Shown one piece after another: positions 7,031-39,414 of a stretch of 64,000 nucleotides of DNA; the stretch's first letter is position 1; every line of letters starts with the position of its first letter. The stretch lies in assembly GCA_965215605.1 (NCBI GenBank), contig OZ244070.1:3072001-3136000 (forward strand), read 5' to 3'. The notes below the pieces were generated by a model that saw nothing but the letters and a program-made list of their open reading frames with translations, was not told the origin of the DNA and did no database searches. The translations under genes and the position numbers were made by a program. Source of the stretch: an uncultured Candidatus Binatia bacterium. GTDB lineage: Bacteria > Desulfobacterota > Binatia > UBA9968 > JAJDTQ01.

Positions 7031-7069
7031 GGACTGCTTCTGGATTTCCCAGGTTGATGGTGATCCGTC

Positions 7070-7699: not shown

Positions 7700-8590
7700 T
7701 CACCAGTTGAGGGCGACGTTGAAGCGGAGGATGTGCTCGGGTTTTGTGTGGGCGGCCTCCCTTCGGGTGGTCTTGAGGCCGAGTTGGAGATCGGGGGCGT
7801 TCTTGCGGGCCAAGGGGTTGAAGCGCCAGCCCAGGCTGTAGTCGCGGGCGCCGGCGGCGAAGCCGAAGCCGACATGGGGGCTGGCGGCGAAGCGGCCGTC
7901 CAGGACCGGGAAGCCGTAGGCGGCCTCGGCCAGCCAGCGGCTCTCGGCGGTACCGCCCGCGCCGCCGCGGGTATCCAGCGGGTCGGGAGCGAACAGGGCG
8001 TCGATGCCGTCTTTGGCCTGTCCGCCCCAGTCCTGACGAAGTGTCAGGGAGGGGCCGAGAGTGGTTGCCGGGTCGGGGTTGTAGGCCAGGGAGGCGGCAA
8101 AGCCCCGGTCCTTCAGATCGTCGGACCGGTGGGCGAGCAGGGTGCGGCCCTCGACATCGAGGCGGAGGCCCAGGGCGGGGTCGCTCCAGGCAAAGCCGCC
8201 GCCGAGTTCGATGCCGGTGCCGGTCTCGGCATCGCCGCCGTCATGGCGCGCGCCCACTTCGAGCCTGGGCGTCAGATGGCCGTTTTGGTCCAGGGCGATC
8301 TTCCAGCTTCCCTCCAGACCCAGCCTGAGCCGGGTCACGTCGGAGTCCGAGGCCGCGAGGTCCCGGGTCTTGTCCGAAGAGGTCCGCGCCCAGAGCGCGT
8401 CCGACTCAAGCGCGAGCGCCGGCCCGGAGCGCTGCTCCTGCGGGGGCCACAGGTCTCCACGGAGTCCCAACGCCGCCATGGTCCAGGAAACGTCCGACTT
8501 GAACACGCCGCCGACCTCCGGCTTGAGCGTCACCGTGCCGGCGCCGTAGCCTGCCGCCCCCCAGAGCTTCAGCCGCTCGGTGGCCTGAAG
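7700..8590 (-). pseudogene. Autotransporter beta-barrel remnant (passenger domain and barrel N-terminus lost)
   Basis: ERLKLWGAAGYG, VTRLRLGLEGS, LTPRLEVGARHDGGDAETGTGIELGGG and terminal W; upstream in-frame sequence lacks a signal peptide and does not look homologous. Confidence 0.7.
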
Positions 8591-8927
8591 AGCCTTGCCG
8601 AGGATGTGCGCGTCCTGGACAAGGCCCCGACGCGCCAGAACTGGATAGGCCGGTGCGTCCTGTCCCGGTCCGAAAAAGTCCAAGGCCTCCGAGTCCTTGT
8701 AGCTGTCCGCCGCGGGCCTGGTGACACCGCACCCGGCCAAGTCGGTCTGAAGATCCGGCAGGAACGCCGCGACGGGAACGACGCGGCCGGGAAAATCCAC
8801 AACTGGTCCTGGCGTTGCGCGTCGGCTCACTTGGCACAAGACCGGCGCTCCGTACGCCGAAGGAGTTCGACAAGGGCTTGGAGATCAGAGTCGGCAAGCA
8901 TGAGTAGCCGAGTAACCGTTGGGAGTG

Positions 8928-10054: not shown

Positions 10055-12172
10055 ATGAGTGATACCCAGGGTCGATACATGGTCGGTGTGGATATCGGCG
10101 GCACCTTTACCGACTGTGTCGCCATGGACGCCCGCGGCACGGTGACCGTGGGCAAGTCCCTTTCCACGCCAGACGACTACTCCATCGGCGCCCTGAACGC
10201 GGTGCGGAACGCCGCCGAGAGTCTGGGGCTGGCGGACGAGGCCGAGCTTCTCGGCTCCACCCGGCTGTTCTTCCACGCCTGCACCATCGGCGACAACGCC
10301 CTCATCACGGGGTCCGGGGCGGTGACCGGACTGATCACCACCAAGGGCTTCGCCGACACCCTTCGCATCATGCGCGGGCGGTTCACCGACGGCGTCCCGG
10401 AGTCGGAGATCTTCCATCTCGCCACCCTTGACAAGCCTGCGCCCATGGTGCCGCGAGCGCTCATCAAGGAGGTGGACGAGCGGGTGGACTATAAAGGCTC
10501 GGTCCTCGTCCGGCTCGATCCGGCGCAGGTGGGGAAGGCCGTGGCCGAGCTGGAATCGAGCGGCGTGGAAGCCATCGCCGTGAGCCTCATCTGGTCCGTG
10601 GCCGACGACCGGCACGAACGGGCCATCGCCGGGATGGTCGCGGAAAGGTACCCCGGGATATTCCTCAGCCTGTCCAGCGAAGTGGCGCCCTACCTGGGCG
10701 AGTACGAGCGCACCGCCACCACCGTGTTCAACGCCTCCATCGGGCCGAGGATCTCCACCTACGTCAAGCGCCTGGGAGGCCGGCTGCGGGAGACGGGCCT
10801 CGATGGCGAGCCGCTCATCATGCAGTCCTACGGCGGCGTCCTGGGGGTGGAGGCCACCGCCCGCAACGCCATCGGCACCATCGAGTCGGGACCTGCCGCC
10901 GGGGTCTCCGGCAGCGCCTGGCTCGGCCGCCTCATGGACTTGCCCGACATTCTGGCCACGGACATGGGCGGCACCACCTTCAAGGTCAGCGTGATCCGGG
11001 ACGGTGCCATCGAGATGGACTACAAGCCGGTGCTGCTGCGCCATCAGATCTACGCCACCAAGATCTGGGTGGAGTCCATCGGCGCCGGGGGCGGCAGCAT
11101 CGCCTGGACCGATCCCAAGACAGGGCTGCTCAAGGTGGGGCCGGAGGGGGCGGGGGCGCAGCCCGGACCCGCCTGCTACGGTCTGGGGGGCGCCGAGCCC
11201 ACGGTGTCCGACGCGGACCTTGTGCTGGGCTACCTCAATCCGGATTACTTCCTGGGCGGGCGCATGTCGCTGGATGCGGAACAGGCGCGCCGCGCCGTCG
11301 AGCAGAGGGTCGCCGTGCCCCTGGGCCTGTCCGTGGAAGCGGCGGCCGCCGGCATCTTCCGCATCATCAATGCGCACATGAGCGACCTCATCCGGCGCGC
11401 CACGGTGGAGCGCGGCTACGATCCCCGGGACTTCACCCTGTTCGCGTTCGGCGGCGCCGGGCCGGTGCACGCGGCCCGCTACGCGGCGGAGCTGGGCATC
11501 AAGCAGGTGGTGGTGCCGCTCACGGCGTCGGTGCACAGCGCCACTGGTCTGGTCAGCTCGGACATCGTCTACCAGTACGGCAAGTCGGACCGGTTGCTGG
11601 TGCCGGCGGACCGCGAGCGCGTCAACCGGAACTTCGACGAGCTGGCGCGGCGCGCCCGCGCGGACCTGGCGGCGGCCGGCTTCGAGGGCGACGGCGTCCG
11701 GGTCGAGCGAAGCCTCGACATGCGGTATCGGTACCAAGTGCACGAGTTGAACGTGGGCATGCCCGAAGGCGCGGAGCCGCTATCGGAGCAGGAGCTGGAG
11801 GGCGTGTACGAACGTTTCGACGGCCTGTACGAACGGACCTACGGCCCCGGCTCCGGCTACCGCGAGGCCGGCAAGGAGATCATGAACTTCCGGCTCACCG
11901 CCACCGGCATGCTCGACAAGCCCCGGCTGCAACGGTATCCGTTGTCGTCGGGCCACCCGGACGGCGCCGTCACGGGACGCCGGAAGGTCCACTTCGAAGA
12001 GTTCGCGGAGGCGCGCGAGACCCCGGTGTACGGCTTCGAATCCTTGCAACCCGGGAACGAGATCGCAGGTCCGGCCGTTATCGAGACGCCGGTGACCACC
12101 ATCCTGGTCAACCCCGGCGACCGGGCGGTCATGGACGAGTATCGGAATATCCGGCTGCTCATCGGGAGCTGA
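10055..12172 (+). CDS. Hydantoinase/oxoprolinase A subunit (ATP-binding)
   Basis: GVDIGGTFTD, ESGPAAG, DMGGTT, IGAGGGS, GPACYG.GG and FGGAGP motifs. Confidence 0.93.
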   Translation: MSDTQGRYMVGVDIGGTFTDCVAMDARGTVTVGKSLSTPDDYSIGALNAVRNAAESLGLADEAELLGSTRLFFHACTIGDNALITGSGAVTGLITTKGFADTLRIMRGRFTDGVPESEIFHLATLDKPAPMVPRALIKEVDERVDYKGSVLVRLDPAQVGKAVAELESSGVEAIAVSLIWSVADDRHERAIAGMVAERYPGIFLSLSSEVAPYLGEYERTATTVFNASIGPRISTYVKRLGGRLRETGLDGEPLIMQSYGGVLGVEATARNAIGTIESGPAAGVSGSAWLGRLMDLPDILATDMGGTTFKVSVIRDGAIEMDYKPVLLRHQIYATKIWVESIGAGGGSIAWTDPKTGLLKVGPEGAGAQPGPACYGLGGAEPTVSDADLVLGYLNPDYFLGGRMSLDAEQARRAVEQRVAVPLGLSVEAAAAGIFRIINAHMSDLIRRATVERGYDPRDFTLFAFGGAGPVHAARYAAELGIKQVVVPLTASVHSATGLVSSDIVYQYGKSDRLLVPADRERVNRNFDELARRARADLAAAGFEGDGVRVERSLDMRYRYQVHELNVGMPEGAEPLSEQELEGVYERFDGLYERTYGPGSGYREAGKEIMNFRLTATGMLDKPRLQRYPLSSGHPDGAVTGRRKVHFEEFAEARETPVYGFESLQPGNEIAGPAVIETPVTTILVNPGDRAVMDEYRNIRLLIGS

Positions 12173-12183
12173 GAAAGGGCGCC

Positions 12184-14232
12184 ATGGACACCCGAATCCG
12201 CGGCATCGATCCGGTGACCTTCGAGATCCTGTCGCACCGGCTGCACCAGGTGACCCGTGAGATGGGAATCACCCTGGAGCGCACCGGCGGCACCGTCAAC
12301 ACCACGCAGCAGCGGGACTACATGGCGTCTCTATACCGCCCGGACGGGGAGATCCTTTCCGCCGGCGCGACCCTCGGCCAGCACGTGGTCTGCGCCAGCT
12401 ACGCGGTGAAGCGGATCATCGAGCGTTTTCCGCCGGAGGATGTCTTCGAGGACGACGTCTTCCTCTTGAACGATCCCTACCTGGCCGCCATCCACCAGTC
12501 CGACGTCTACGTCATCGCGCCGGTCCACGACCGGGGGCGGCTGGTGGCATGGAGCGCGACCTTCGTCCACGTAAACGACGTCGGTGCCATGTCGCCGGGG
12601 GGAGACTCGCCGGACGCCACCGAGATCTTTCACGAGGGGTTGCGGGTCCCCGGCATCAAGCTGGTGGAGCGGGGCAGGCTGCGCCAGGACGTGTTCGACA
12701 CCCTGACCAACATGACCCGCCAGCCGGGCATGGTGGGCCTGGATTTCAAGTGTGAGATCGCCGCCAACAACGTGGCCAAGGCGCGGCTCGGCGAGATGTA
12801 TGACCACTACGGGCCGGAGCTTCTGGAATCGGTGGGCAACGAGATGGTCCGCTACACCGAGGCCATCCTCCGGGAACGGATCGCGTCGTTCGAGGACGGC
12901 GAGTGGACCGAAGAGCTCGCGCTGGAGGCCCAGGACACCTGGCGCATGAAGGTGACGTTGCGCAAGCGCGGCGACCGGCTCGTCTTCGACTTCACCGGCA
13001 CCGACCCCCAGGCATTGACCGGCGTCAACCTGCCGTTCCACGGCACCGCCGGCTTCTGCTTTGCCGCGGTGCTGACCACCCTCGTGTACGATCTCCCCAA
13101 GAACCACGGCGTGCTGCGGCCGCTGGAGGTCATCGCCCCCGAGGGGACGCTGGTGAACGTCAGGTACCCCGGTCCGGTGTCCATGAACACCACGTCCTGC
13201 GGCTTCGGCGTCGGCTTCCTGGCCAGCTCGGTGCTGATGCAGATGCTCGGCACCCACGAGAGCTGGAAGGACGAAATCGTCACCCCCAACGCCAGCCACC
13301 GGAACGGCAAGCACTCCGGGGTGAACCAGTACGGGCGCTACTGCGTGTTCAACCTCGCCCACGGCGCCATGGACGGCAACGGCGCCCGCGCCCACGCCGA
13401 CGGCATCGACTCCGGCGGCAACTACATGAACTGTCCCAACGCGGAATGGTTCGAGCTCAATTTCCCGGTGCTCTACCTGTTCCGCCGCCACGCGACGGAC
13501 TCCGCGGGTCCCGGGAAGTATCGCGGCGGGTTGGCGGTGGAGACCGCCCACACGCCCCACGACGTGCCCGAGGGAAGGTTGGGCGGCGTCGCCTACGGCG
13601 TGGCCGGGCTCCGCAACTCCGGCCACGGCATGTACGGCGGCTATCCCGGGGCTCCCAGCGTCATCGTGCTCAGGGAGGGCACCCGCGTCCGCGAGGTGAT
13701 GGCTCGGGACCGCAATGCGGTGGACCTCGACGAGGTGGGCGGGCGGGAGCGGGTGCTCCCGTATTGCAACTTCGGGTTCAACGAAGGGGACGTCCTCTAC
13801 ATGCGGGTGGCCAGCGGCGGCGGCTACGGAGATCCGTTGACCCGGGAGCCCGGCCGGGTGCGGGCGGACGTGGTGGACGGCGTGGTCTCCGCGGGTGCGG
13901 CAGGGGACCTCTACGGTGTGACGTTCAAGCCCGGGACCCGGGAGGTGGATCCCGATGCTACCGACGCGTTGCGTCGGCGCCTCGGAGGCGGAAAGGCCGA
14001 GTTTCGCGATACGCCGGACGAGGCGAATGGCGACCACGGGGCGTCCTGCCCCCGGTGTTCGTCCATGCCCGCGAACACGGAAGCAAAGGGCGCGGCCGAA
14101 GCGCGGGTCTTTCCGCCTACGGAAGCCGGGCCGCTCATGGTGGACCTGGAAGGGCGTTACCTGTTCGAGAAGGTCTACTGCGGCTCGTGCAACGCTCTGA
14201 TCAGGGCCCATATGGTGCCGGAAGAACGCTGA
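12184..14232 (+). CDS. Hydantoinase B/oxoprolinase subunit with C-terminal Zn-ribbon extension
   Basis: NDPY...HQSD, HVNDVG, EGLRVP, DSAGPGKYRGG and GGGYGDP; tail carries CPRC and YCGSC. Confidence 0.92.
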   Translation: MDTRIRGIDPVTFEILSHRLHQVTREMGITLERTGGTVNTTQQRDYMASLYRPDGEILSAGATLGQHVVCASYAVKRIIERFPPEDVFEDDVFLLNDPYLAAIHQSDVYVIAPVHDRGRLVAWSATFVHVNDVGAMSPGGDSPDATEIFHEGLRVPGIKLVERGRLRQDVFDTLTNMTRQPGMVGLDFKCEIAANNVAKARLGEMYDHYGPELLESVGNEMVRYTEAILRERIASFEDGEWTEELALEAQDTWRMKVTLRKRGDRLVFDFTGTDPQALTGVNLPFHGTAGFCFAAVLTTLVYDLPKNHGVLRPLEVIAPEGTLVNVRYPGPVSMNTTSCGFGVGFLASSVLMQMLGTHESWKDEIVTPNASHRNGKHSGVNQYGRYCVFNLAHGAMDGNGARAHADGIDSGGNYMNCPNAEWFELNFPVLYLFRRHATDSAGPGKYRGGLAVETAHTPHDVPEGRLGGVAYGVAGLRNSGHGMYGGYPGAPSVIVLREGTRVREVMARDRNAVDLDEVGGRERVLPYCNFGFNEGDVLYMRVASGGGYGDPLTREPGRVRADVVDGVVSAGAAGDLYGVTFKPGTREVDPDATDALRRRLGGGKAEFRDTPDEANGDHGASCPRCSSMPANTEAKGAAEARVFPPTEAGPLMVDLEGRYLFEKVYCGSCNALIRAHMVPEER

Positions 14233-14284
14233 CCTGTCCGACACCCGTCCCCGCCCCTGGACCCCGGGGCGGGGCGGGAGCGCC

Positions 14285-15400
14285 TCAGAACCCGAACTGC
14301 GCCATGTCGACTTCGGCGCCGCTCTTGCGGCACTCGTCCTCGAACACCCGATGGATCTCGGGGTCCTGGTCCTGGTACTCGATCTGCGCGCCGCCCTTCT
14401 TGACGTCCTCGCCGGTGTCTTTGAGCTCTTCCACCTTGTACTTGAAGCCCCAGGGCTTGAGCGCCAGGTAGCGGGCCGGCTCGGCGCCGTTGTTGAAGTG
14501 CTGGTGCCACCACTGGATGGGCGGCACGAACATGCTCATGCGCCCCCAGTCCACCCGTTTTCTTTGGGCGCCTTCCTCCCACAGGAAGGAATAGCCGGAC
14601 CCGGTCAGCATGATGATGTGGGCGCCCGCGCCGTGGCGGTGGGCCTTCTTGTACTTGCCCACCGGGAACTCCGAGAGGTGCGCGCTCATGGTGTTGTCCA
14701 CGAACTCGAACAGGGTGGTACGGTTGCCGCCGCCGCGCTCCTTGTAGTCCTTGGGCGAGAACTGCCACAGGTCGGCGATGAAATTGGACTCCCACACCCG
14801 GCCCTTCTTCACCCCCTCCAGGTAGCGGCCGGGCTGGCCCCAGTGGTTGGCGTCGCCCTGGTAGCGGTCGCCGAAGGTGAAGGGGTTGTTGAAGATGTAG
14901 TCCAGGTTCCGGTAGCGGTTGATGATGACGTTGGCGTCGGTCAGCGAGATCATCCGCACCGGCTCACGTCCCTGGGCATTGAAGTGTTGAAACCAGGTGT
15001 TGAGCGGGACCGAGAAAAGGCTGCCCTTCTGCCATTCCAGCGTGTGCTTTCGGCCGCCCTCGTTCCACAGGGTGGTGGCGCCCTGGCCGGACAGGATGAA
15101 CACCGCTTCCTCGAACAGGTGGCGCTGCGGCCGGAGCTCCCCTCCCGGCGCGATCTCCTGGATCACCGTGTCGCAGGTGCCGCCGGCGCCGTCGAGGTTG
15201 ACGAACGCCCCCTTGCCGCCGGTGCGCGTCCAGTCGCCGAGCTCCAGCTCCAGCAGGTCGTCGACGATGAATCCCTTGTACACGGGAATTCCTTCCCACT
15301 GCTGGTAGATCTCGTAGGGGCTGATGGGGGCGAAGGCCGAGGCTTCGTTGAGGTTCTGTTCCGATCCGTTGGCGGTGTTGGCAGTGGCTGGTTTGCTCAT
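14285..15400 (-). CDS. Bicupin protein (putative dioxygenase-like)
   Basis: RHLFEE/WFQHFN and KAHRHG/WWHQHFN cupin motifs. Confidence 0.85.
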   Translation of the reverse strand: MSKPATANTANGSEQNLNEASAFAPISPYEIYQQWEGIPVYKGFIVDDLLELELGDWTRTGGKGAFVNLDGAGGTCDTVIQEIAPGGELRPQRHLFEEAVFILSGQGATTLWNEGGRKHTLEWQKGSLFSVPLNTWFQHFNAQGREPVRMISLTDANVIINRYRNLDYIFNNPFTFGDRYQGDANHWGQPGRYLEGVKKGRVWESNFIADLWQFSPKDYKERGGGNRTTLFEFVDNTMSAHLSEFPVGKYKKAHRHGAGAHIIMLTGSGYSFLWEEGAQRKRVDWGRMSMFVPPIQWWHQHFNNGAEPARYLALKPWGFKYKVEELKDTGEDVKKGGAQIEYQDQDPEIHRVFEDECRKSGAEVDMAQFGF

Positions 15401-15431
15401 TTCAATTCCTTCCTGCGGGTCAAGGGCCTGG

Positions 15432-16463
15432 TCAGACAGGCTCCTGGCGCCGCTCCTCCCGGTAAAGCCCGAAGGCCTCCTTCACCGGGCGGTCGTTGAC
15501 CGAGAACAGGACGGCTTCGTCCTTGCGGCCGTTCTCGTGCTGGTGCCACGACCACAGCGGCACGGTGAAAAAGTCGCCCTGGCTCCATTCGATGCGCTGG
15601 TCGTCGACGATGGTGGCGCCGCTGCCGCGGAACACGTGATAGATGGTGGTGCTGGTGTGGCGGTGCGAGCGCGTCTTCTCGTCGGGCCGGATCATCTGGA
15701 TCTCGCAGCCGATGGTCCGCAGCGTGAACCCGCCGTTCCGCGGGTTGACGTAGCGCAGCAGCACCCCGTCGCACTCGTCGCCCGGTGTCGAGGCCAAGGC
15801 CTTCAGGGATTCGTAGGTGGTCTCCCACGGATAGCGGAAGGGCGGGTCCGGGAACTCCGAGAGCTGCTCCGGCGGCCGCGCCCAGCCAAACTGGTGCAGG
15901 CTGAAGTCGGGCACGGCTTCCACCGGCTGTTGCTTCTGGCTGAAGGGCTCCACCGCCATGACCTCCAGGGCCTTGAGCAGGGGGCCGTCGTGGCCGTCCA
16001 GCCAGACGATGTTCTCGCCGGTGCCGTTGTAATGGTCGTGCCACGTCCACTGGGGAGTCAGGATCAGGTCGCCGGGATTCATGGTGAAGCGTTCGCCCTC
16101 CACGGTGGTGAAGGCGCCGCCGCCCCTGAGGACGAAGCGCAGCGCGGTCAGGGTATGGCGGTGCGCCTTGGCGATCTCTCCGGGTTTGACCAGTTGGACG
16201 GAGGTGTGCACCGTGTTGGTGGCGCCGGTGACGCCCGGCACGCCGGGATTGAGGAGGCGGATGGTCCGCCGCTCGGACTGCTCCAGGCTGACCAGCTCGC
16301 CGGCTTCCAGCAACCCGTTGTAGATGTCGGTCCACTTCCACAGGTAGGGAACCACCGTGGTCCTGGGCTCGAGGACCTCCCCTTCGTTGCCGGTGATGTT
16401 GGAAGCCCAGAAACCCGCCAACTGCTTGGCAGCCAGATCCTTGTCGAGGTCTTCGAGGCTCAT
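15432..16463 (-). CDS. Gentisate 1,2-dioxygenase-like cupin
   Basis: ERRTIRLLNPG, AHRHT, GDLILTP.WTWHDH, WLDG.D.P, HRHT and W.WHQH; start ATG 16463. Confidence 0.88.
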   Translation of the reverse strand: MSLEDLDKDLAAKQLAGFWASNITGNEGEVLEPRTTVVPYLWKWTDIYNGLLEAGELVSLEQSERRTIRLLNPGVPGVTGATNTVHTSVQLVKPGEIAKAHRHTLTALRFVLRGGGAFTTVEGERFTMNPGDLILTPQWTWHDHYNGTGENIVWLDGHDGPLLKALEVMAVEPFSQKQQPVEAVPDFSLHQFGWARPPEQLSEFPDPPFRYPWETTYESLKALASTPGDECDGVLLRYVNPRNGGFTLRTIGCEIQMIRPDEKTRSHRHTSTTIYHVFRGSGATIVDDQRIEWSQGDFFTVPLWSWHQHENGRKDEAVLFSVNDRPVKEAFGLYREERRQEPV

Positions 16464-16516
16464 GGTCGTCTCCCTGCCGCTGCTTGAATGCGGGTGCTGC
16501 TCTGTTTTCCCGGATC

Positions 16517-17224
16517 TCAGCCCTCGATGCGCCGCATGGCGTAGGCCATCCCGCCGCGGTAGGCCCGGTCGATGGCCATGCACTGTCCGGCGGCGCGCAG
16601 CACCGTGTCATAGTCCTCTTGTGTGAGCACGTGCTTGTCGTAAACGCCGTCCATCATGTCCGAATGCTCGGTGTCCGCGGTGGCATGCACGTTCAGCGAT
16701 ATCATCCGCTTCAGGTTGATGCCCAACTCGTTCTCGAACTTCTTGCCGATGCGGTAGGACATTCCTCCGTCCGTGACGATGTCCGGGTTGTTGCGGCGCT
16801 CCAGCATCTGGGAGGAAGTGAACGCGGCCAGCCACGGGCCCTTCATGGCGATGTGGTGCCACGCCAGGAAGGCCGCCTGCGTGATGGGCGGCAGTTCCGC
16901 CTTCTCGAAGTCTTCCGGCTCCAGGCCGATGACCTCGCCCTGTTTGACCGTGAGGGTATAGTGATCCATGTCGCAGCGCGGGTCGTTGATCAGCTCGTCG
17001 CTTTCGTGCTGCCACACCAGCGCCTTGACGTCCAGCGGCGCCCCGCCTTGCACGTAGCCCCAGCAGTCCCGGCGGTTCTTGGTGTAGAGCGCGTTCTGCA
17101 CCACGTAGTAGCGTCCCCGCTCCAGGGTCCAGGGCAGCGACAGCAGATCCTGGAACTCGTCCGTCTCGAACTGGCGTCTGCACATCTCGTTCAGGGTGCT
17201 TTTGAGCTTCGCGATATCCGGCAT
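16517..17224 (-). CDS. Heme-oxygenase-like diiron enzyme (CADD/PqqC/TenA fold), paralog 1
   Basis: DE..DH..LE..HATADTEH ligand pattern (E,H,E,H,D,H). Confidence 0.75.
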   Translation of the reverse strand: MPDIAKLKSTLNEMCRRQFETDEFQDLLSLPWTLERGRYYVVQNALYTKNRRDCWGYVQGGAPLDVKALVWQHESDELINDPRCDMDHYTLTVKQGEVIGLEPEDFEKAELPPITQAAFLAWHHIAMKGPWLAAFTSSQMLERRNNPDIVTDGGMSYRIGKKFENELGINLKRMISLNVHATADTEHSDMMDGVYDKHVLTQEDYDTVLRAAGQCMAIDRAYRGGMAYAMRRIEG

Positions 17225-17270
17225 GGTCTCGGACTCCTGTCGGGCGTGTCCGCCGCGGGTGGTCCCCGCT

Positions 17271-17999
17271 TCAGTCGAGCGCCTCCATCATGTTGACAAG
17301 CTGCTCCCGGTAGGCGCGGTCGATCATGAGGCTTTCCCGGGCGCCCCGAAGCAGCGCCTGCTGCTGGTCGTCTGTTTGGCAATGTTCCCGCGCCACCTCC
17401 AGCAGGAGCTGGCCGTGCTCCACGTCGGCGGTGACGTGCTCGGCGTTGTTGATCTGCCGTTTCAACGGGATCCCCAGGTCGCGTTCCAGGTTCTTGCCCA
17501 CGCGGTACGATAGCGACCCGCCGTGCACCAGGTCGTCGGAGTTGCGCATCTCCAGCACCGCCGACGCCGCGATGGCCTCCCGCCACGGGCGGTCCTTGGC
17601 CAGGTGGACCCAGGCGTAGAAGCATGCCACCGCGCTGTCCAGCGGGCGCACGCGCTCGTAGTCCTCGGGAGACAGGCCGAAGACCCTGCCTTCCTGGACG
17701 GCCAGGGTGATGTGGTCGACCTTGCCCGCGGCCCTGTCGCCCATGAGCTCCTCGCCCTCGTGCTCCCAGACGAGCCGCTTGACGCTCAACGGCGCCGCGC
17801 CGGCCACAAACCCCCAGCAGTCCCGCCGGTTGGCGACGTAGTGCTTCATCTGGATGGAGAGGGCCTGGGCGCGCTCCTGGGAGAACCGGAGCTCCAGCAG
17901 CCGGCGGAAGGGCGGGGTCTCGAACTGCCGGTTCACCAGCTCTACGAGCTCCTGCCAGACGCTCTCCACGCCGTTCCGTTCCGCGGTGTGCGTTTCCAT
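17271..17999 (-). CDS. Heme-oxygenase-like diiron enzyme (CADD/PqqC/TenA fold), paralog 2
   Basis: EE..DH..LE..HVTADVEH; shares NRRDCWG, APL.VK.LVW.HE and IDRAYR with its neighbour; start ATG 17999. Confidence 0.75.
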   Translation of the reverse strand: METHTAERNGVESVWQELVELVNRQFETPPFRRLLELRFSQERAQALSIQMKHYVANRRDCWGFVAGAAPLSVKRLVWEHEGEELMGDRAAGKVDHITLAVQEGRVFGLSPEDYERVRPLDSAVACFYAWVHLAKDRPWREAIAASAVLEMRNSDDLVHGGSLSYRVGKNLERDLGIPLKRQINNAEHVTADVEHGQLLLEVAREHCQTDDQQQALLRGARESLMIDRAYREQLVNMMEALD

Positions 18000-18079
18000 G
18001 CTCTTTTCCCGGGAAGCGCTACTTTGCCCCGACCAACTGCTCCCCCCGGCGTTGGTCCACGCAATCCCCGTCGCCCGTG

Positions 18080-19528
18080 TTACAACCGGTCCGCCCATTT
18101 CGCCCGGACCTGGGCCTTGTATTCGGCGCTGACGCCGGAAATCGCCGGAAACGCGTCCTTCCAGCTATAGGGCCGGCAGGCGTCCACCACCATGCAGGAG
18201 GTGGTCAACTCCCGGCGTTGCTTGTCCTCGGGGGAAAGCCGCGGGTTGAGGATGCTGGCGGCCACGTCGAGGATCTCGGAGTCGGTCTTGGGGTCCCAGC
18301 GGGTGGACATGGCCCAGAGCACCTCGCCCATGTTGGTGATGTCCACATCCTCGTCCACCACGATGACCATGCGTACGTCCCGGCCGCCGTCGCGGGTGGC
18401 GAGGACGCCGTATCCCGCCTGCTTGGCGTGGCCCGAGTAACGCTGCCTGACCGCCACGGTCACCACGAAGCGTCCCTGTTTCGGGAACCACACGCCCTGC
18501 ACCTCCGGGATGCCGGCGCGCTCCATGGCCGACCAGATGTTGGCGGAGCGGATGTACTTGTGGGTCTCGCTGTTGAGGAAGGTCCTGAGCGGCGGATCGC
18601 CGGTGATGATGGGGTCGTCGCGGTGATAGACCGCCTCCACCTTCACCACCGGCGCCTGCCGCGACCCGGACGCGTAGTACCCGGGCCACTCGCCGAACGG
18701 CCCCTCCTCGTGGGTCTCCTGCTCGGGCGGTGGTATGCGACCCTCCAGGACGATGTCCGCGAAGGCGGGCACGGGCAGCCCGGTCTTCTGTCCCTTGATG
18801 ACCGGGACCGGGGTTTCCAGGAGTCCGCCCAGGAAGTCGTACTCGCTCATGTTCCAGGGGATCCCCACGGCGCTCGCGGTCATCATGCCCGGAGGGAGGC
18901 CGCAGATGACGGCCACCGGACAGCTCTCGCCCCGGGCCCAGTACTTCCGGGTGATGAGGTCGCCGTGCTTCCCCGGGATCATCCACACGCCCACGGTGTT
19001 CTCGTCGTGGACCTGGACGCGGTAGGTGCCGACGTTGACGTAGCCCGTATCGGGATCGCGGCACACCGTTGCGGTGAACGTGCCGATGTAGCGGCCGCCG
19101 TCGTCCGCGTGCCACTTGGGAGTGGGGAACTTGAGCAGGTTGACGTCGCCGTCGAAGGCGACATTCTCCAAAAGCGGCGATTCGCCGATCTCGGTCGGGG
19201 GAATGGGCTTCAGATCCTGGAGCCGCCTCTTGACGGCCTGGACCACTTCCAGGCCCCGGACGTCCGGCGGCATGCCCAAGGCCAGGGCGTCGGACTCGGG
19301 CGACCGGAGAACGTTGCTGAGAACGCGGTAGCCTTCCGGGTGATCCGGTACGGCGTCGAAGAGCAGCGCGGAGCCCTCGCCGGATTCGGCCGCGATCTCG
19401 GTGAGCGCCCCGATTTCCAGGTCCCAATGGGCGTCGCGGATCTCCTTGAGCTTTCCCGCCCGCCTGAGCCGGTCGATGAAAGTCCGCAGGTTCAGGGCCG
19501 CTTCAACGTCCCGTGGCTCGCTCGTCAT
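18080..19528 (-). CDS. UbiD-family prFMN-dependent (de)carboxylase
   Basis: DGGRYIGT, NVGTYR, EEGPFGEWPGYY, VIVVDEDVD and WAMSTR.DP motifs. Confidence 0.93.
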   Translation of the reverse strand: MTSEPRDVEAALNLRTFIDRLRRAGKLKEIRDAHWDLEIGALTEIAAESGEGSALLFDAVPDHPEGYRVLSNVLRSPESDALALGMPPDVRGLEVVQAVKRRLQDLKPIPPTEIGESPLLENVAFDGDVNLLKFPTPKWHADDGGRYIGTFTATVCRDPDTGYVNVGTYRVQVHDENTVGVWMIPGKHGDLITRKYWARGESCPVAVICGLPPGMMTASAVGIPWNMSEYDFLGGLLETPVPVIKGQKTGLPVPAFADIVLEGRIPPPEQETHEEGPFGEWPGYYASGSRQAPVVKVEAVYHRDDPIITGDPPLRTFLNSETHKYIRSANIWSAMERAGIPEVQGVWFPKQGRFVVTVAVRQRYSGHAKQAGYGVLATRDGGRDVRMVIVVDEDVDITNMGEVLWAMSTRWDPKTDSEILDVAASILNPRLSPEDKQRRELTTSCMVVDACRPYSWKDAFPAISGVSAEYKAQVRAKWADRL

Positions 19529-19645
19529 GCATCCATCTCCATGTGGCGGCGGACCCGAGGGTCGATCCGTGACTATCCATAGGCCCTATAGGCCCAGCGC
19601 CGGCGGCTGTCAACCTGGACATCCGCGCCCATTTTGTCTAAGCGT

Positions 19646-19670
19646 GTAGGGGCCGGTTTCAAAACCGCCC
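19646..19670. repeat. GTAG-type REP-like palindrome
   Basis: GTAGGGGCCGGTTTCAAAACCGCCC; related hairpins at 35265-35287 and 62925-62945. Confidence 0.5.
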
Positions 19671-19745
19671 GCGCCCGGTCACGACCGAAACCGCCGCCGG
19701 ACAGGGCTCAGACACAGCCACTCCAGAGGAGGTCACCAGGCAGTC

Positions 19746-20342
19746 ATGGCACAGATCACCGACCCGTTGCGGCAACACGATTGGAACTCAGAGGAATACG
19801 TCGAGGACTGGGCTCAGCGCCAGCGGCGCAACGAGACCCTGCGCGCCCGGCAGTTCGCGCTCATGGCGAGCCTGGCGCCTTTCGAGAACGAGGCCGCCTT
19901 CCGGTTCATGGACGTGGGGTGCGGCTACGGGGCGCTGAGCAAGTACCTGCTGGAGACCTTTCCCGGCGCCACCGCCGTGTGCCATGACGGCTCGGCGGCC
20001 ATGGCGAAGCTGGGCAGCGAGCGCATGAAGGATCTCGGAGGACGGTTCGAGTACGTGATCTCCGACTTCAGCAAGAAGGACTGGAGCCGGGTGGCCGGCG
20101 GCGAGTTCGATCTCGTGGTCTCGTGCAACGCCATCCACAACGTCCGGGCCGGCGAGATCATCCAGGCCGTCTACGAGGAGATCTTCGGGCGCGTGCGGTC
20201 CGGCGGCCGGTTCTTCAACCTCGACCGCGGCTCGGCCTCGATGGAGGACCAGCTAGCCTGGTTCAAGGGTGCCGGGTTCCAGGACGTGACCTGCCACCAG
20301 AAGAGCTCGGGACTCTCGCTCTACGGCGGTTCCAAGCCCTGA
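19746..20342 (+). CDS. Class I SAM-dependent methyltransferase
   Basis: MDVGCGYG, FDLVVS.NAIH and GGRFFNLD; GGAGG RBS. Confidence 0.9.
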   Translation: MAQITDPLRQHDWNSEEYVEDWAQRQRRNETLRARQFALMASLAPFENEAAFRFMDVGCGYGALSKYLLETFPGATAVCHDGSAAMAKLGSERMKDLGGRFEYVISDFSKKDWSRVAGGEFDLVVSCNAIHNVRAGEIIQAVYEEIFGRVRSGGRFFNLDRGSASMEDQLAWFKGAGFQDVTCHQKSSGLSLYGGSKP

Positions 20343-20388
20343 TCCTTCCGGCCCTAGTGTCCTGCGCAGGACACTAAGGTCCTCCTCG

Positions 20389-21579
20389 ATGACGGGTCCA
20401 CGGGCCGGCAGCCTCGCACTGCTATACAGCACGGTCCTGCTCATGAGCTTGGGGCAGGGCATGGTGTTTCCCACCATTCCGCTGCTGGCGTCGTCCTTCG
20501 CGGTCTCCGCCGGGCTCGCCGTGCAGGTGGTTACCGCCCATGCCTTGGGCCGCACCATCATCCTGATCCCGGCGGGCCTGCTCCTCGACCGGTCCGGAGC
20601 CAAGACCACCATGCTGGTGGGAAGCGCCCTGGTCCTGTGCGGCGCTTTCGTGACCGCCGTCACCCCTTACTTCCTGTTGTTTTTTGTCGGGCAGTTCCTC
20701 GCCGGCGTCGGCGACAGCGTTTGGACCATGGGCCGGGAGGTTTCCGGCGTCGAGATGGTGCCGCAGCACCAGCGGGGCCGCCTGCTGAGCGGTTTCATGG
20801 GGGTCAAGTCGGCCGGCATGGCCATCGGCCCGGTGGTGGGCGGGATCATCACCCAGTGGGTAGGGTTTCGGATGGTGTTTACGGTTTACGCGGCCGTGGC
20901 CCTGGTCGTGTTCGTGACCGCGCTGCTGGCCCGAAAGGACGCGGTCCGGGCCAGAGTCGGCAGGGTCGCCTGGTGGGGAAAGGTCTCGGACGTCCTCCCG
21001 CACCTCCGTGCCACCTTCGTGGCGCTCGTGTTCGCGACCTTCAGCATGCAGATGTACCGCACCGCCCTGCAAGGCATGCTGCCGCTGTATGCCGGGGTGG
21101 AGTTGGGCTACTCCGCGGCGCATGTGGGCGGCCTTTTCGGCGTGTCCGGCGTGTTCGTCCTGCTCATGATCCTGCCCGCCGGCTTCATCACCGACCGCGT
21201 CGGGCGCAAGTACGCCAGCGTCCCCAGCACCGCGCTGCCGGGCATCGCGTTCCTGGCCTTCCCGTTCGCCTCGACGATGCCGCAACTCGTGGCGATCATG
21301 CTGGTGATCGGCCTCGCCCAGGGCATGTCCCTGGGCGCCCTGGCGGTGTCCACCTACGACGTGATCCCGGCGGAGTCCCGGGGACGCCTTCAGGGGCTCC
21401 GCCGTACCGTGGGCGAGTCCGGGGCGGTGATGGGTCCGCTGCTGGGCGGCTGGCTCGTTGATCTGGTCAGCGCCGGCCGGACGTTCCTCTTCTATGCCCC
21501 CATCCTGCTGGCCGCCGCCGCCGGATTGGCGTTCGTGGCGAAAGAAACCCTGGTGAAGACGAAAGGCAACCCCGTTTGA
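20389..21579 (+). CDS. MFS transporter
   Basis: About 12 hydrophobic segments; GLLLDRSG and GFITDRVGRK motif A repeats. Confidence 0.9.
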   Translation: MTGPRAGSLALLYSTVLLMSLGQGMVFPTIPLLASSFAVSAGLAVQVVTAHALGRTIILIPAGLLLDRSGAKTTMLVGSALVLCGAFVTAVTPYFLLFFVGQFLAGVGDSVWTMGREVSGVEMVPQHQRGRLLSGFMGVKSAGMAIGPVVGGIITQWVGFRMVFTVYAAVALVVFVTALLARKDAVRARVGRVAWWGKVSDVLPHLRATFVALVFATFSMQMYRTALQGMLPLYAGVELGYSAAHVGGLFGVSGVFVLLMILPAGFITDRVGRKYASVPSTALPGIAFLAFPFASTMPQLVAIMLVIGLAQGMSLGALAVSTYDVIPAESRGRLQGLRRTVGESGAVMGPLLGGWLVDLVSAGRTFLFYAPILLAAAAGLAFVAKETLVKTKGNPV

Positions 21580-21676
21580 CAAGAACTCGGCCAAGGCTCC
21601 ATCATGAACCCCCGCGAGCGGTGAACGCGGGAACGGGTGGAGACATGCATGATGGGTTCGAACATGGGAGGCTTGA

Positions 21677-22561
21677 ATGCGCAAGGATACGATCGATCCG
21701 AAGGTTTTCGATCTCTACGACGAGTATTGCCACAGCATGATGGACCGCCGTGAGTTTCTCCGGCGCGCCAGCGCCCTGGCCGTCGTCGGCGGGTCCGGGC
21801 TGCTGATGGCGCGTGCGCTGCTGCCGGATTACGCCGCGGCGCAGATGATTTCGTTCACCGACAAGCGCATCAAGGCGCGCTATGTCGAGTACGATTCGCC
21901 CGGCGGCAACTCCGGCAGGATGCGGGGTTATCTGGTGCAGCCGGCCGGCGCGGGACCGTTTCCGGCGGTTCTGGTCATTCACGAGAACCGCGGCCTCAAT
22001 CCCCATATCGAGGATGTCGCGCGGCGCGCCGCGGTCGCGGGGTTCCTCGCCCTGGCCCCCGACGGTCTCTCGCCCATCGGCGGCTATCCCGGCAATGACG
22101 ACGACGGCAAGAAGATGCAGCGGAGCCTCGATCGAGGCAAACTGCGCACGGACCTTCTCAACAGCGCCAGGTATGTCAAAACCCACTCGCTGTCCAACGG
22201 AAAGCTGGGGGCCACCGGCTTCTGCTTCGGCGGCGGGGTGGTCAACTTCCTCGCGGTCCGGATGGGAAGCGATCTGAACGCCGGCGTGCCGTTCTACGGC
22301 TCCGCCCCGAAAGACGCGGCCGACGTCGCCAAGATCAAGGCGCCGCTGCTGATCCACTACGCCGAGAACGACCCGCGCATCAACAAGCAGGCTCCCGGCT
22401 ATGCGGCCGGCCTGACGGCCAACGGCGTATCCCACGAGGCGCATACCTATCCCGGAACGCGCCACGGCTTTCACAACAACTCGACGCCGCGCTACGATGA
22501 AGCCGCCGCGAAGCTTGCGTGGGAGCGGACGGTGGCCTTCTTCAAGAAGCATCTGTCGTAA
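21677..22561 (+). CDS. Dienelactone hydrolase-family protein (YghX-like, Tat motif)
   Basis: FDLYDEYCH..MDRREFL; HENRGLNPHIEDVARR; GFCFGG; HGFHN. Confidence 0.92.
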   Translation: MRKDTIDPKVFDLYDEYCHSMMDRREFLRRASALAVVGGSGLLMARALLPDYAAAQMISFTDKRIKARYVEYDSPGGNSGRMRGYLVQPAGAGPFPAVLVIHENRGLNPHIEDVARRAAVAGFLALAPDGLSPIGGYPGNDDDGKKMQRSLDRGKLRTDLLNSARYVKTHSLSNGKLGATGFCFGGGVVNFLAVRMGSDLNAGVPFYGSAPKDAADVAKIKAPLLIHYAENDPRINKQAPGYAAGLTANGVSHEAHTYPGTRHGFHNNSTPRYDEAAAKLAWERTVAFFKKHLS

Positions 22562-22634
22562 ACGATCAGCCGCCATACCAACCGCGTGAAACCGGCGGCC
22601 CTGTGGCCGCCGGCACCGGGTGCATTGAGGTGCG

Positions 22635-23063
22635 ATGACCGAACCATGGCAATACCAGCTACGCCTCACTCTGGCGGATGCATTCGCCGAGGCAGCCCGG
22701 CGCGGCGGCGGCAATCCGGCTATGGAGCCACTCACCGAGTTGCTGGGCCGGCACGACGCAACGCTGAAGTGCCAGTACGATGCCTTCGCCGGCTATTGCG
22801 CCGAAGCCGAGCAACGGGGCGTCGACAGATACCCCCTCTACGCCTGGACCAGGGCCACCATCGAAGATCCCGCCAAGAAGGCCAGGTACATCAGGTCCTT
22901 CACCATCTACGTGGACGGAGACGAGGTCTACTCCAAGGCCAAGGCCGATGCGTTGGAGGCGGAGTTGCAGCCCTTGGTCGGCGGCGCCGTGGTGACCGCC
23001 ATGGCCAGACACGACACCAATCCCGCCAACAACCCGCAGCCGCCGAAACGTTACCGGTCGTGA
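22635..23063 (+). CDS. Conserved hypothetical protein
   Basis: GAGG RBS, coding-like composition; CQYDAFAGY..EAE..G...YPLY.WT and DTNPANNPQPP look conserved. Confidence 0.7.
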   Translation: MTEPWQYQLRLTLADAFAEAARRGGGNPAMEPLTELLGRHDATLKCQYDAFAGYCAEAEQRGVDRYPLYAWTRATIEDPAKKARYIRSFTIYVDGDEVYSKAKADALEAELQPLVGGAVVTAMARHDTNPANNPQPPKRYRS

Positions 23064-23304
23064 ACGTCATAATCGACTCTGTACGAGAACGGGGAGTTCT
23101 AAGCGTTTTCGTGGATGAGTAATCGATTCTGTACGTACAGTCTCGATGATAGTGACCTCAGCGCCTCCTTCCCGTTTCTTTGATTGGTTCAGTGGTACAA
23201 GGAACAGGCGCTGTATTGCGGTATTGGTTGTAATCGTTTTTAAATAGAATTAGCCTGATCTAATTCTTATTGCACGGTTGTAACCACATCTGGATGAAAA
23301 AAAC

Positions 23305-24804
23305 GTGAGTAACGAGGAAAAGGCTCCCATCGGCCAGGCTTGGCTCAGGCGAGAGATGGCTTTGGCGGTGCCGCCCCCGGCAACGGAGAGCTATGTCGTC
23401 GCCAGTGCCCGGCGAACCGAGGTGCACGGCCCGCGGACCATCGAGTTGTATCCCCGATCCTATGCCACGGAGAGGACCTTGGCGGCTCACCTCCGATTTG
23501 CACTGCGTCATGAGCCACTGGACCTCGGCGTTCTGGTCGCGGCTCTCAAGGCCATCAAGCCCTCCGAGTTGGAAGCCTGGGTGCGGGCAGAGCCTACCGG
23601 CGCCTTCAGCCGCCGGGCGTGGTTTTTCTACGAGTCCTTTACAGGGAGAACGCTGGATGTAGAGGACGTCCGCACCGGCAATTACGTGGCGGCTCTCAAT
23701 CCCGACAAGCATATCGTTGCCGAAAGACGCAATTCTCCGCGCCACCGCGTAGCCGACAACCTGCTTGGCGGCCCCGCTTTCAGCCCGACCGTGCGGCGCA
23801 CACCGCGACTCATGGAGCAGATGGGCGCGCGGCTGGACCAGGAAGCGCGGACGCTCCTCGATAGCTATGACCCGCTGCTCCTCGTCCGCGCGGTGAACTA
23901 TCTCTACACGAAAGAGACGCGCTCCTCATTCGCCATCGAGGGCGAGACACCGAGCGCGAAGCGCACCGAGCGGTTTGTCGCTGCCCTGAGAGCGGCGCCG
24001 GATTTTGATCCGAGCGACAAGATGGCATTGGTCCGCCTGCAGGGAGACATTGTCGATCCGCGCTACGCGGCCGCGGATTGGCGCGATTTCCAGAACTTCG
24101 TCGGCGCCATTGTCCAAGGGTACCGCGAAGAGGTCCATTTCATATGCCCGCGGCCTGAAGATGTGCCCAGCCTGATGGCTGCCTGGATGGCGTCGACGCA
24201 GCGTATCCTGGACGGCAGAGTCGAGCCCGTCGTCGCGGCGGCGGTCTGTGCCTTCGCCTTCGTCTTCATCCACCCCTTCGAGGACGGCAACGGACGCATC
24301 CACCGTTTCCTGGTACACCACGTCCTTGCAAAATGCGCCTATAGTCCGCCCGACGTTGTCTTTCCCGTCTCGGCGGCCATATTGCGCGACCGCCGTCGTT
24401 ACGACGAGGTGCTCGAAGGCTTTTCGCGGCCGATTTCCGAATTTGTCCAATGGCGATGGACGGGAGAGCGAGGGATTGTCGTCGAGAACGACACCAGTGA
24501 CCTTTACCGTTACTTCGACGCGACGGCGTTCGTCGAATACCTCTATGATCGCGTGGCCGAGACGGTTCGCCGTGACCTCAAGGAAGAACTCGGGTTCATT
24601 GCCACCTTCGACAGGGCGTTTGAAGCGGCTCGCGCCATTGTCGATATGCCGGATCGCCGGGCATCGCTGCTTGTGCGACTGTGCATGCAGAATGGCGGAC
24701 GCCTCTCGGCTACCAAGCGCGGCCAATTCAAGGAACTGGATGACTCCGAGATCGCTGCAATGGAAGCGGCGGTCCAGGACGCCATCCGCTCGGATGTCTG
24801 GTAG
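23305..24804 (+). CDS. Fic-domain protein (putative AMPylase)
   Basis: HPFEDGNGRIHR catalytic motif; SFAIEG inhibitory-helix motif. Confidence 0.92.
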   Translation: MSNEEKAPIGQAWLRREMALAVPPPATESYVVASARRTEVHGPRTIELYPRSYATERTLAAHLRFALRHEPLDLGVLVAALKAIKPSELEAWVRAEPTGAFSRRAWFFYESFTGRTLDVEDVRTGNYVAALNPDKHIVAERRNSPRHRVADNLLGGPAFSPTVRRTPRLMEQMGARLDQEARTLLDSYDPLLLVRAVNYLYTKETRSSFAIEGETPSAKRTERFVAALRAAPDFDPSDKMALVRLQGDIVDPRYAAADWRDFQNFVGAIVQGYREEVHFICPRPEDVPSLMAAWMASTQRILDGRVEPVVAAAVCAFAFVFIHPFEDGNGRIHRFLVHHVLAKCAYSPPDVVFPVSAAILRDRRRYDEVLEGFSRPISEFVQWRWTGERGIVVENDTSDLYRYFDATAFVEYLYDRVAETVRRDLKEELGFIATFDRAFEAARAIVDMPDRRASLLVRLCMQNGGRLSATKRGQFKELDDSEIAAMEAAVQDAIRSDVW

Positions 24805-24998
24805 GGCAGGGCCGGTTCGCTACCGCGCCTGAGAACGGCCATCGAGTCCACACAAGGACCTCCGCCCCATCGCGTCGAAACTGATGCCTCGGATCATCGA
24901 TGAGGCCAAGACCGGCCGGCCCGGCCGGTGGGTGGCGCCGCGACCTTGCGCATTGCCCGGTGAACCCGGTAGAAGATTCAGTTTTGGAGGCATGGGCC

Positions 24999-25565
24999 GT
25001 GTCTGGAAATGAAACTCGAAGGCGCAGGGAAGGAATCCTTTTTCTCGTCGGGTTCGGGTTGTGCATCCCGGCCGCCAACTGGCTCATCGGCAACGTGGGA
25101 ACGGTTTGTCCGCCGGACGCACCGTGCCTGATCCCGGTGGCGCCGGGGGTCATGGCGCCCAGCGGGGTGGTGACCATCGGGCTGGCGTTCGTTCTGCGCG
25201 ATCTGGTGCAGCGGCGGATCGGGGTCCGGTGGGCGGCGGTTGCCGTGGTCCTGGGCGCCGGCCTGTCCGCGTTTTCCGCCCCGCCGGCGCTGGTGGCGGC
25301 GTCCGGTACGGCCTACCTGTTCTCCGAGACCGCCGACCTCGCCGTCTACACGCCGTTGCAACGGCGCCGCCTGCTGCTCGCGGTGTTCGCCAGCAGCATC
25401 GTGGGTCTTGTGGTCGACAGCATCCTGTTCCTGTATCTGGCGTTCGGGAGCATCGAGTTCCTGGCGGGACAGGTCATCGGGAAAACCTGGATGGTCGTCC
25501 TTGCTTTGCCTTTCATCGTCCTGTTGCGCCGGCGCGACGAACGCCTGGGCTTGACGGCGGCTTGA
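24999..25565 (+). CDS. VUT family membrane protein (queuosine-precursor transporter YhhQ-like)
   Basis: IG.AFVLRDLVQ, SETADLAVYTPL, S..VG..VDS..FL..AFG and GQ..GK; GGAGG before GTG 24999. Confidence 0.82.
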   Translation: MSGNETRRRREGILFLVGFGLCIPAANWLIGNVGTVCPPDAPCLIPVAPGVMAPSGVVTIGLAFVLRDLVQRRIGVRWAAVAVVLGAGLSAFSAPPALVAASGTAYLFSETADLAVYTPLQRRRLLLAVFASSIVGLVVDSILFLYLAFGSIEFLAGQVIGKTWMVVLALPFIVLLRRRDERLGLTAA

Positions 25566-25591
25566 ATTTCGCCAAAGGCTCGGAAATGGAG

Positions 25592-39408: not shown

Positions 39409-39414
39409 CCACTA

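Follow-up and report, generated by a model that had tools for sequence, protein, structure and literature searches.

A gene cluster of a Candidatus Binatia bacterium that joins a UbiD-family decarboxylase, paired heme-oxygenase-like proteins and two bicupins: a candidate module for aromatic catabolism

Organization of the Cluster

The stretch of DNA analysed here, called the window below, comprises 64,000 nucleotides of the genome of an uncultured Candidatus Binatia bacterium (GenBank assembly GCA_965215605.1, contig OZ244070.1, positions 3,072,001 to 3,136,000). At window positions 14285–19528, five genes lie on the minus strand in the same orientation. They encode a UbiD-family decarboxylase, two paralogous heme-oxygenase-like (HO-like) proteins named HOa and HOb, a bicupin of the gentisate 1,2-dioxygenase (GDO) family, and a divergent bicupin named Cup2. 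The composition of this operon suggests a new role in breakdown for the fold of the heme-oxygenase-like diiron oxidases (HDOs), and the conserved functional unit within it is an HDO-type oxidase, duplicated in Binatia, together with a GDO-related bicupin.

The first gene of the operon (18080–19528, minus strand, as are all five) encodes a PhdA-like decarboxylase of 482 aa, which belongs to the UbiD family dependent on prenylated flavin mononucleotide (prFMN), with the UbiD_N, UbiD and UbiD_C domains of Pfam. It is followed by HOa (17271–17999, 242 aa) and HOb (16517–17224, 235 aa), HDO-type proteins that match the Pfam family PF14518 (Haem_oxygenas_2) with E values of 1.3e-13 and 7.3e-9, respectively. 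The GDO-like bicupin (15432–16463, 343 aa) and Cup2 (14285–15400, 371 aa) each show two Cupin_2 stretches in Pfam. Counted from UbiD to Cup2, with the ATG of HOa placed at 17999, the intergenic gaps are 80, 46, 53 and 31 bp, just as an earlier reading of the letters alone (the sequence-only reading below) had described five co-oriented genes with gaps of 31–80 bp. A purine-rich Shine-Dalgarno-like stretch is found upstream of every one of the five starts. The operon likely ends in a 52-bp convergent intergenic region (14233–14284), which lies between the stop codons of HydB and Cup2 and contains a GC-rich inverted repeat. No terminator was predicted in this region, because it has no T-run, and none was predicted on the operon strand across 13800–20000. 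At the other end, the 217-bp divergent intergenic region between UbiD and a methyltransferase gene (19529–19745) is the likely promoter region. A promoter scan of 13800–20000, this region included, returned no sigma-70-like site, and an Rfam search of 13800–23500 at E ≤ 1 gave two chance-level matches only, neither of them in 19529–19745.

The Heme-Oxygenase-Like Pair

Over 221 residues, HOa and HOb share 45% identity (BLASTP, E = 1e-66), and neither matches an NCBIfam family. Both carry the motif NRRDCWG, which the sequence-only reading had picked out as common to the two paralogs. Across 36 orthologs of HOa and 36 of HOb, its residues are either invariant or conserved to at least 90%. The protein atlas gave only clusters named "iron-containing redox enzyme," and the NRRDCWG subfamily is one with no characterised member, NCBIfam family or paper. 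When a profile of 14 family members was compared with solved structures, the best match was 4lqx (E = 1.3e-15, residues 71–219), with CADD (1rcw) and 9pj4 at about 1e-5 and PqqC at 1e-3 over about 60 residues. 4lqx is SSO2700 of Sulfolobus solfataricus, a structural-genomics protein of 322 aa with a TENA/THI-4 domain and no assigned function. It is the closest solved sequence relative, has an extra N-terminal part and aligns with the HO family over its C-terminal two thirds only.

An AlphaFold2 (AF2) model of HOa was built from 51 sequences, with L079:3083-3772 omitted because of a stop codon, and reached a predicted local distance difference test score (pLDDT) of 92.1 and a predicted template modelling score (pTM) of 0.89. 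In Foldseek, its best match was CADD (8va9, TM-scores 0.74/0.83), followed by 4lqx (TM-score 0.77), PqqC, BesC, HrmI, FlcD and UndA. By the model and these matches, HOa has the seven-helix heme-oxygenase-like bundle. The fold is thus shared with CADD (CT610) and NePabS (1rcw, 8va9, 9pj4), and so are five of the six ligand positions, including HxxxDxxH. In the profile alignment with 1rcw, HOa residues H97, E151, H189, D193 and H196 are paired with CADD residues 88, 142, 174, 178 and 181, which we take to be metal ligands of CADD, and they are invariant or nearly so in the 51 diverse HO-like sequences. (HOa residue numbers from alignments exceed by one those counted from the ATG at 17999, since the reference, 17271–18002, has one extra residue.) CADD residue 81 faces a variable position in the HO-like family. 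On one helix of the HOa model (residues 72–87), there are an invariant H81-E82 pair and an E85 that is at least 90% conserved, and either E82 or E85 is probably the first carboxylate, at a position shifted from that in CADD. Thus the CADD-type E/H/E/HxxxDxxH set that the sequence-only reading had assigned to both proteins stands at five of its six positions, while its first carboxylate is probable but displaced. H81, E82, E85, H97, E151, H189, D193 and H196 are invariant in the 36 orthologs of HOa, as are H73, E74, E77, H88, E142, H180, D184 and H187 in those of HOb. The available part of a 2026 review defines HDOs by three His and three carboxylate ligands on the core helices (PMC13108848). 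The residue set of HOa and HOb fits this definition, and the binding of two metal ions and activation of O2 expected of HDOs may be predicted for both proteins.

HOa and HOb may also be read as something other than O2-activating metalloenzymes, either metal-free proteins of the TenA/PqqC type or self-sacrificing p-aminobenzoate (pABA) synthases of the CADD type. CADD and the pABA synthases are their nearest characterised relatives, Foldseek matches include structures of PqqC and TenA, and both proteins give weak partial matches to PF03070 (TENA_THI-4, cut-off 22 bits), HOa with 23.5 bits (residues 90–152) and HOb with 19.6. The invariant His/Glu/Asp set at the CADD ligand positions, found in the 51 members and in both ortholog sets, speaks against a metal-free protein. 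A CADD-type synthase fits poorly as well. The position of CADD residue 152, presumably the amine-donor Lys, is occupied by Leu172 in HOa and is not conserved, so that the Lys expected of such a synthase is lacking. TIGR04305 does not match HOa or HOb at E ≤ 0.01. The sacrificial residue of CADD is Tyr27 according to the available part of its source (PMC9522330), and the HOa–CADD alignment begins at CADD residue 33, beyond that Tyr. Identity to CADD is only 14–15%, and CADD has neither NRRDCWG nor the Arg, Lys and Trp residues that are invariant in the family. Whereas a folate context would be expected of CADD, the Pfam annotation of the window places no folate genes near the cluster, the gene context looks catabolic, and there are up to seven HO-like copies per genome, as in the present one. 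We therefore regard this alternative as very improbable.

The family-specific invariant residues are R59, R60, W63, K75, W140 and R167 (HOa numbering), and they would suit an acidic aromatic ligand. In a maximum-likelihood tree, a clade of HOa that includes single genes of other phyla (support 100/97) is separate from that of HOb (100/99), which is confined to Binatia-type metagenome-assembled genomes (MAGs). HOb occurs without HOa in three loci (L080, L084 and L085), a different HO paralog takes the first position in L074, and in other phyla single HOa-type genes are found without HOb. Each paralog type can occur alone, which argues against an obligate HOa–HOb heterodimer. Such a heterodimer may still form, but the solo genes of both types weaken the proposal.

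The Bicupins and the UbiD Decarboxylase

The GDO-like bicupin matches PDB entry 3bu7 at E = 1.8e-73, and judged by its sequence the fourth gene clearly encodes a member of the gentisate dioxygenase family. No equivalog can be assigned to it, as its scores are below the cut-offs of MabB (NF049978, 319.5 vs. 650 bits) and gentisate_1_2 (TIGR02272, 297.8 vs. 442.1 bits). Cup2 is a remote relative of 3bu7 (E = 8.6e-7) and likewise falls below the NCBIfam equivalog cut-offs. Its AF2 model (pLDDT 87.9) is a confident bicupin. H254, H256, H299 and H301 are invariant and H261 is at least 90% conserved, and these residues cluster in the C-terminal cupin; the N-terminal cupin has H..E in place of HxH. 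The metal site of Cup2 is therefore probably in the C-terminal cupin. Foldseek returned generic bicupins only, with TM-scores of about 0.5. In the VIA comparison, salicylate and gentisate dioxygenases came first (Z 21), with MncA, oxalate decarboxylase and seed globulins within 1 Z unit, and because of this tie among bicupins the fold of Cup2 does not fix its function. The Cup2 family counts 1873 proteins at E ≤ 1e-20, which are named inconsistently by the sources. One NCBI record calls a homolog "ethanolamine ammonia lyase-activating protein," a name that no NCBIfam model supports for the window protein. What can be said is that Cup2 is a GDO-related bicupin and the constant partner of the HO pair.

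The UbiD of the window has the three-domain UbiD architecture in Pfam (E = 8e-61) and belongs to the UbiD family by its TIGR00148 score (279.1 bits, cut-off 244.85). Its best solved relative by far is 7pda (E = 3.6e-124, 418 bits, residues 13–479), the next best reaching 177 bits. 7pda is the phenazine-1-carboxylate decarboxylase PhdA of M. fortuitum, as given in the available part of its source (PMC10850782). The two proteins align over the full length and have the motifs EGPFGEW and GTYR in common, with about half of the aligned positions identical. Since seven UbiD paralogs of the same genome are themselves 37–45% identical to the window UbiD, the substrate of PhdA is not transferable to it. 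The supply of prFMN appears to be provided for, because the genome has one UbiX gene above cut-off (TIGR00421, 235.7 bits; G000:C1:3056958-3057503), about 33 kb from the cluster.

Conservation of the Gene Set across Genomes

The window proteins were located by tblastn in 80 species-genome loci that carry a relative of HOa. By HOa identity, these loci fall into a close class (at least 80%, 18 loci), a class of mid-distance Binatia (55–70%, 36 loci) and a distant class (below 55%, 26 loci). An HOa match is directly followed by an HOb match in 45 of the 80. In the close class, 17 loci have UbiD within 1.5 kb and 17 have two HO-like genes. Cup2 lies no more than 9 kb away in 16 loci, and 14 have a GDO-like gene at a distance of up to 400 bp. 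There is some variation among these relatives, as L027 has neither UbiD nor Cup2 and L020 and L026 have no GDO-like gene. Most close loci (16 of 18) have a gene for a TctC-like protein between UbiD and HOa, which the window and L025 lack. This protein has no Pfam match at 1e-5 and is 27% identical (E = 2e-30) to the TctC-family protein of the window. It is of the periplasmic binding type, with a signal-peptide-like N-terminus (L011:7895-8932 and 15 others).

The mid-distance class is different. Two HO-like genes are present in 30 of its 36 loci and Cup2 within 400 bp in 26 (in 15 of the 18 loci with full flanks), while UbiD is found in none and a GDO-like gene within 400 bp in only two. Cup2 of this class is 76–81% identical to that of the window, against only 57–67% for HOa and HOb. 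The distant class is made up mostly of Alphaproteobacteria and Chloroflexota, with one MAG labelled Gemmatimonas, and usually has one HO-like gene (two in three of the 26 loci). Within 9 kb, UbiD occurs in 12 of these loci (seven of the 12 with full flanks) and a Cup2-like gene in 11, and 10 loci have a GDO-like gene no more than 400 bp away. Their gene orders differ from that of the window, for example GDO-HO-UbiD (L070), UbiD-HO-UbiD (L075) and GDO-HO-Cup2 (L071, L072), and the neighbours include several TctC/TctA genes, IclR, protocatechuate 3,4-dioxygenase, CoA transferase, a LigXa-like Rieske oxygenase and Amidohydro_2. The HO-like proteins of L071 (labelled Alphaproteobacteria) and L072 (labelled Gemmatimonas) are near-identical, with branch lengths of 0.03–0.04 and the same gene order, which suggests either that the locus was transferred recently or that there was an error of binning or labelling. 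L072 has at least four UbiD genes, together with seven of the TctC-like kind.

Across the 80 loci, then, the conserved core is HOa-HOb-Cup2 and not UbiD, and the full five-gene cluster is restricted to close relatives. The sequence-only reading would have been contradicted by homologs without links to UbiD or to cupins. The link to cupins is upheld by Cup2 in the mid-distance class and by the GDO-like genes of the distant one; that to UbiD holds only in part, as UbiD is absent from the whole mid-distance class and from L027.

In mid-distance Binatia, the trio is preceded by genes for a DAO-family amine oxidase, a third CADD/TenA-like protein and an aldolase of the dihydrodipicolinate synthase (DHDPS) family, and also by two or three SsuA/NMT1-like binding proteins and an EutA-like ATPase (L039, L046, L053, L034). 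The SsuA/NMT1-like genes have no visible permease genes, and a short-chain dehydrogenase/reductase gene lies on the opposite strand. Such a context allows a different explanation, in which the trio forms a portable module whose substrate contains nitrogen and is not aromatic, for example an N-heterocyclic acid or one derived from an amino acid. The module would act by N-oxygenation or C–C cleavage, as known HDOs do, and UbiD and GDO would have been juxtaposed recently in one lineage. The scarcity of UbiD and GDO-like genes in this class (36 and 34 of the 36 loci without them) and the 32 UbiD paralogs of the genome fit such a history. SznF offers a precedent, since an HDO domain is joined to a cupin domain in it, and in SznF and split SznF-like systems alike an HDO-type oxygenase and a cupin metalloenzyme act together. 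In the present case, however, the proteins are separate, the cupin is a GDO-like bicupin and the context is not that of a natural-product cluster. No fused HDO-cupin protein of 425–2000 aa was found at E ≤ 1e-10 with HOa, which is weak evidence against the parallel. The site of SznF has three His and four carboxylate ligands, and most HDOs characterised so far take amino or fatty acids as substrates, as stated in the available part of the review (PMC13108848). The latter point favours a nitrogenous substrate. However, Cup2 is itself a GDO-related bicupin, and HOa-type genes have GDO-like bicupins as direct neighbours and UbiD close by, both in independent arrangements of other phyla and at a second locus of the same genome. 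On balance, we consider a nitrogenous substrate rather unlikely, although it is the strongest of the alternatives.

Paralogous Loci in the Same Genome

The genome (4.06 Mb) has seven HO-like, 32 UbiD, eight GDO-like and 10 Cup2-like genes, and 27 tblastn matches (E ≤ 1e-20) to the TctC-like binding protein. At one paralogous locus, the order is HO-like, GDO-like, UbiD, UbiD, glutathione S-transferase and pyridine-nucleotide-disulfide oxidoreductase. The transferase is maleylacetoacetate-isomerase-like, below cut-off. This island (L009, G000:C1:313000-331000) also encodes a CmcJ/NvfI-family oxidoreductase, a RidA-like protein and an Amidohydro_2 protein, with further GDO-like genes at C1:326721, 328786 and 341094. 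Another HO locus consists of a tandem HO pair, gamma-glutamyltranspeptidase, a third HO-like gene and a TctC gene. Of the four HO-like loci of the genome, two have a GDO-like neighbour no more than 80 bp away. Given the copy numbers, the rough probability of finding by chance a GDO-like gene within 0.5 kb at two of four HO loci is 2.8e-4, vs. 0.016 for UbiD within 2 kb at two of four. Thus the link between HO and bicupin is stronger than that between HO and UbiD. Within the window, a second set of catabolic-looking genes (37906–42120, minus strand) encodes TctA, TctC, a GDO-like bicupin and an FlK-type thioesterase; its bicupin is 52% identical to that of the operon.

Flanking Genes and Transcription

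Upstream of UbiD, three genes run divergently on the plus strand. By Pfam and NCBIfam, they encode an S-adenosylmethionine (SAM) methyltransferase (19746–20342), a major facilitator superfamily (MFS) transporter (20389–21579) and a YghX/dienelactone-hydrolase-family protein (21677–22561). Their synteny is limited to close relatives, and it is uncertain whether they belong to the same system. The methyltransferase and the efflux-type MFS transporter beside UbiD bring up the explanation that the cluster makes an aromatic metabolite, quinone- or pigment-like, by decarboxylation, hydroxylation, methylation and export. A set of UbiD, hydroxylase and methyltransferase resembles quinone biosynthesis. 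Against this explanation, the operon has two bicupins of the ring-cleavage type. The window contains no nonribosomal peptide synthetase, polyketide synthase or prenyltransferase gene, the related loci have TctC uptake proteins, IclR regulators and pca genes, and the multi-copy expansion of all components is typical of catabolic versatility. Although every characterised HDO is biosynthetic in the available part of the review (PMC13108848), we judge a biosynthetic cluster improbable.

At the other end, a hydantoinase A/B pair (10055–14232, plus strand) is convergent with the operon and syntenic in close relatives. In NCBIfam it comes closest to subunits of caprolactamase (alpha/beta) and of acetophenone carboxylase, with no score above the cut-off.

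Metatranscriptome contigs from four runs of four studies, mostly 90–95% alike, cover parts of all five genes, and a bin in the convergent neighbour (14021–14241) is empty in all four. No contig spans beyond one junction, that of HOb and the GDO-like gene (run X17). With this degree of likeness, the contigs derive from relatives. Because they are contigs and not reads, and DNA carry-over is possible, they hint at transcription of the cluster in nature and no more. Some runs with related sequence are labelled sponge metagenome (X8, X20, X21), and the contigs of X20 and X21 are mostly 90–95% alike across the cluster.

Some other features of the window lie apart from these genes. The gene at 30554–33382 (minus strand) encodes a class-I Glu/Gln-tRNA synthetase of 942 aa, which has a GatB/YqeY domain at its C-terminus and is extended by about 195 aa at its N-terminus. 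At 5732–8884 (minus strand), three genes stand in a row, for a multicopper oxidase, a small Rieske protein and a protein of 394 aa that has no Pfam match. The G+C content of 22000–29000 is 0.60–0.63 vs. about 0.66, and this part contains genes for a Fic-domain protein (23305–24804), a Vut_1 transporter and a CBS-domain Na/H exchanger.

Proposed Pathway

In the reading that we favour, with a probability of roughly 0.55, the five genes form an operon for the aerobic catabolism of a carboxylated (hetero)aromatic compound, in which the HDO would oxygenate in concert with the bicupins. The oldest and most conserved part would be a three-gene oxidative module, HOa-HOb-Cup2. This module would have been joined, in the present lineage, by a PhdA-like UbiD and a GDO-type ring-cleaving bicupin, and most close relatives also have a TctC-type carboxylate-binding protein. 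The HDO enzymes would use O2 at a diiron or Fe/Mn site for oxygenation of an aromatic acid, which R59, R60, K75 and R167 may hold together with the Trp residues. The adjacent bicupin dioxygenases would act on the product or the substrate of the HDO, and UbiD would remove a carboxyl group from a peripheral substrate and so feed the module. The gene families, ligand conservation, fold and linkage across genomes are results of the analysis. The metal content, substrate, order of steps, electron supply and heterodimer are what we infer within this reading, and the sequence of decarboxylation, hydroxylation and ring cleavage is purely conjectural. TctC, IclR, protocatechuate dioxygenase and the 32 UbiD paralogs point to aromatic-acid catabolism.

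Several observations weigh against aromatic catabolism by this operon. GDO-type enzymes normally need a ring carboxylate, so that prior decarboxylation of a mono-acid fits poorly with them. With 32 UbiD, eight GDO-like and 10 Cup2-like paralogs in the genome, some adjacency is expected by chance, and for the same reason the adjacency of UbiD alone is weak evidence. UbiD is absent and a GDO-like gene nearly so from the loci of mid-distance Binatia, whose upstream gene context does not look aromatic. The close relatives, in which the complete set is found, are not independent of one another. There is no reductase gene within the cluster. Finally, the young HDO superfamily has more than 10,000 sequences, and the dozen or so characterised ones all serve natural-product or cofactor biosynthesis, mostly with amino-acid or fatty-acid substrates, according to what is available of the 2026 review (PMC13108848).

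The review does not use the words "aromatic," "degradation" or "heterodimer," and its sole "catabol" refers to heme (PMC13108848). It describes only biosynthetic roles, in line with the sequence-only reading, which had held that these oxidases are characterised mainly in biosynthesis. The further point of that reading, that the fold is not known to have a described catabolic role, agrees with the literature searched. Among the papers listed for HDOs, PF14518 and "iron-containing redox enzyme," none names a catabolic member in its title or abstract, and no paper linking HDOs to UbiD, gentisate or aromatic catabolism was found in a search of openly accessible papers. The HDO subfamily described here is uncharacterised and probably has a catabolic role.

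Implications

A broader proposal, possible if doubtful, is that the NRRDCWG subfamily is the first catabolic, aromatic-acting oxygenase of the HDO fold and that it forms, with the GDO-related bicupins, the central module for ring processing in a funnel pathway not recognised before. Many PhdA-like UbiDs, often each with its own TctC, would trim diverse (poly)carboxylated (hetero)aromatic acids to a common intermediate, and the duplication into HOa and HOb in Binatia may have led to a heterodimer.

If a catabolic role is true, the HDO fold would be extended to degradation and to aromatic substrates, across several phyla. A new type of oxygenase would then stand beside the flavin, Rieske, P450 and soluble diiron enzymes that prepare rings for cleavage, as part of a small module of three to five genes. 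It would also help to account for the expansion of UbiD, bicupins and TctC binding proteins in Binatia, and the related contigs in sponge-labelled RNA libraries would point to the turnover of carboxyl-rich aromatic matter.

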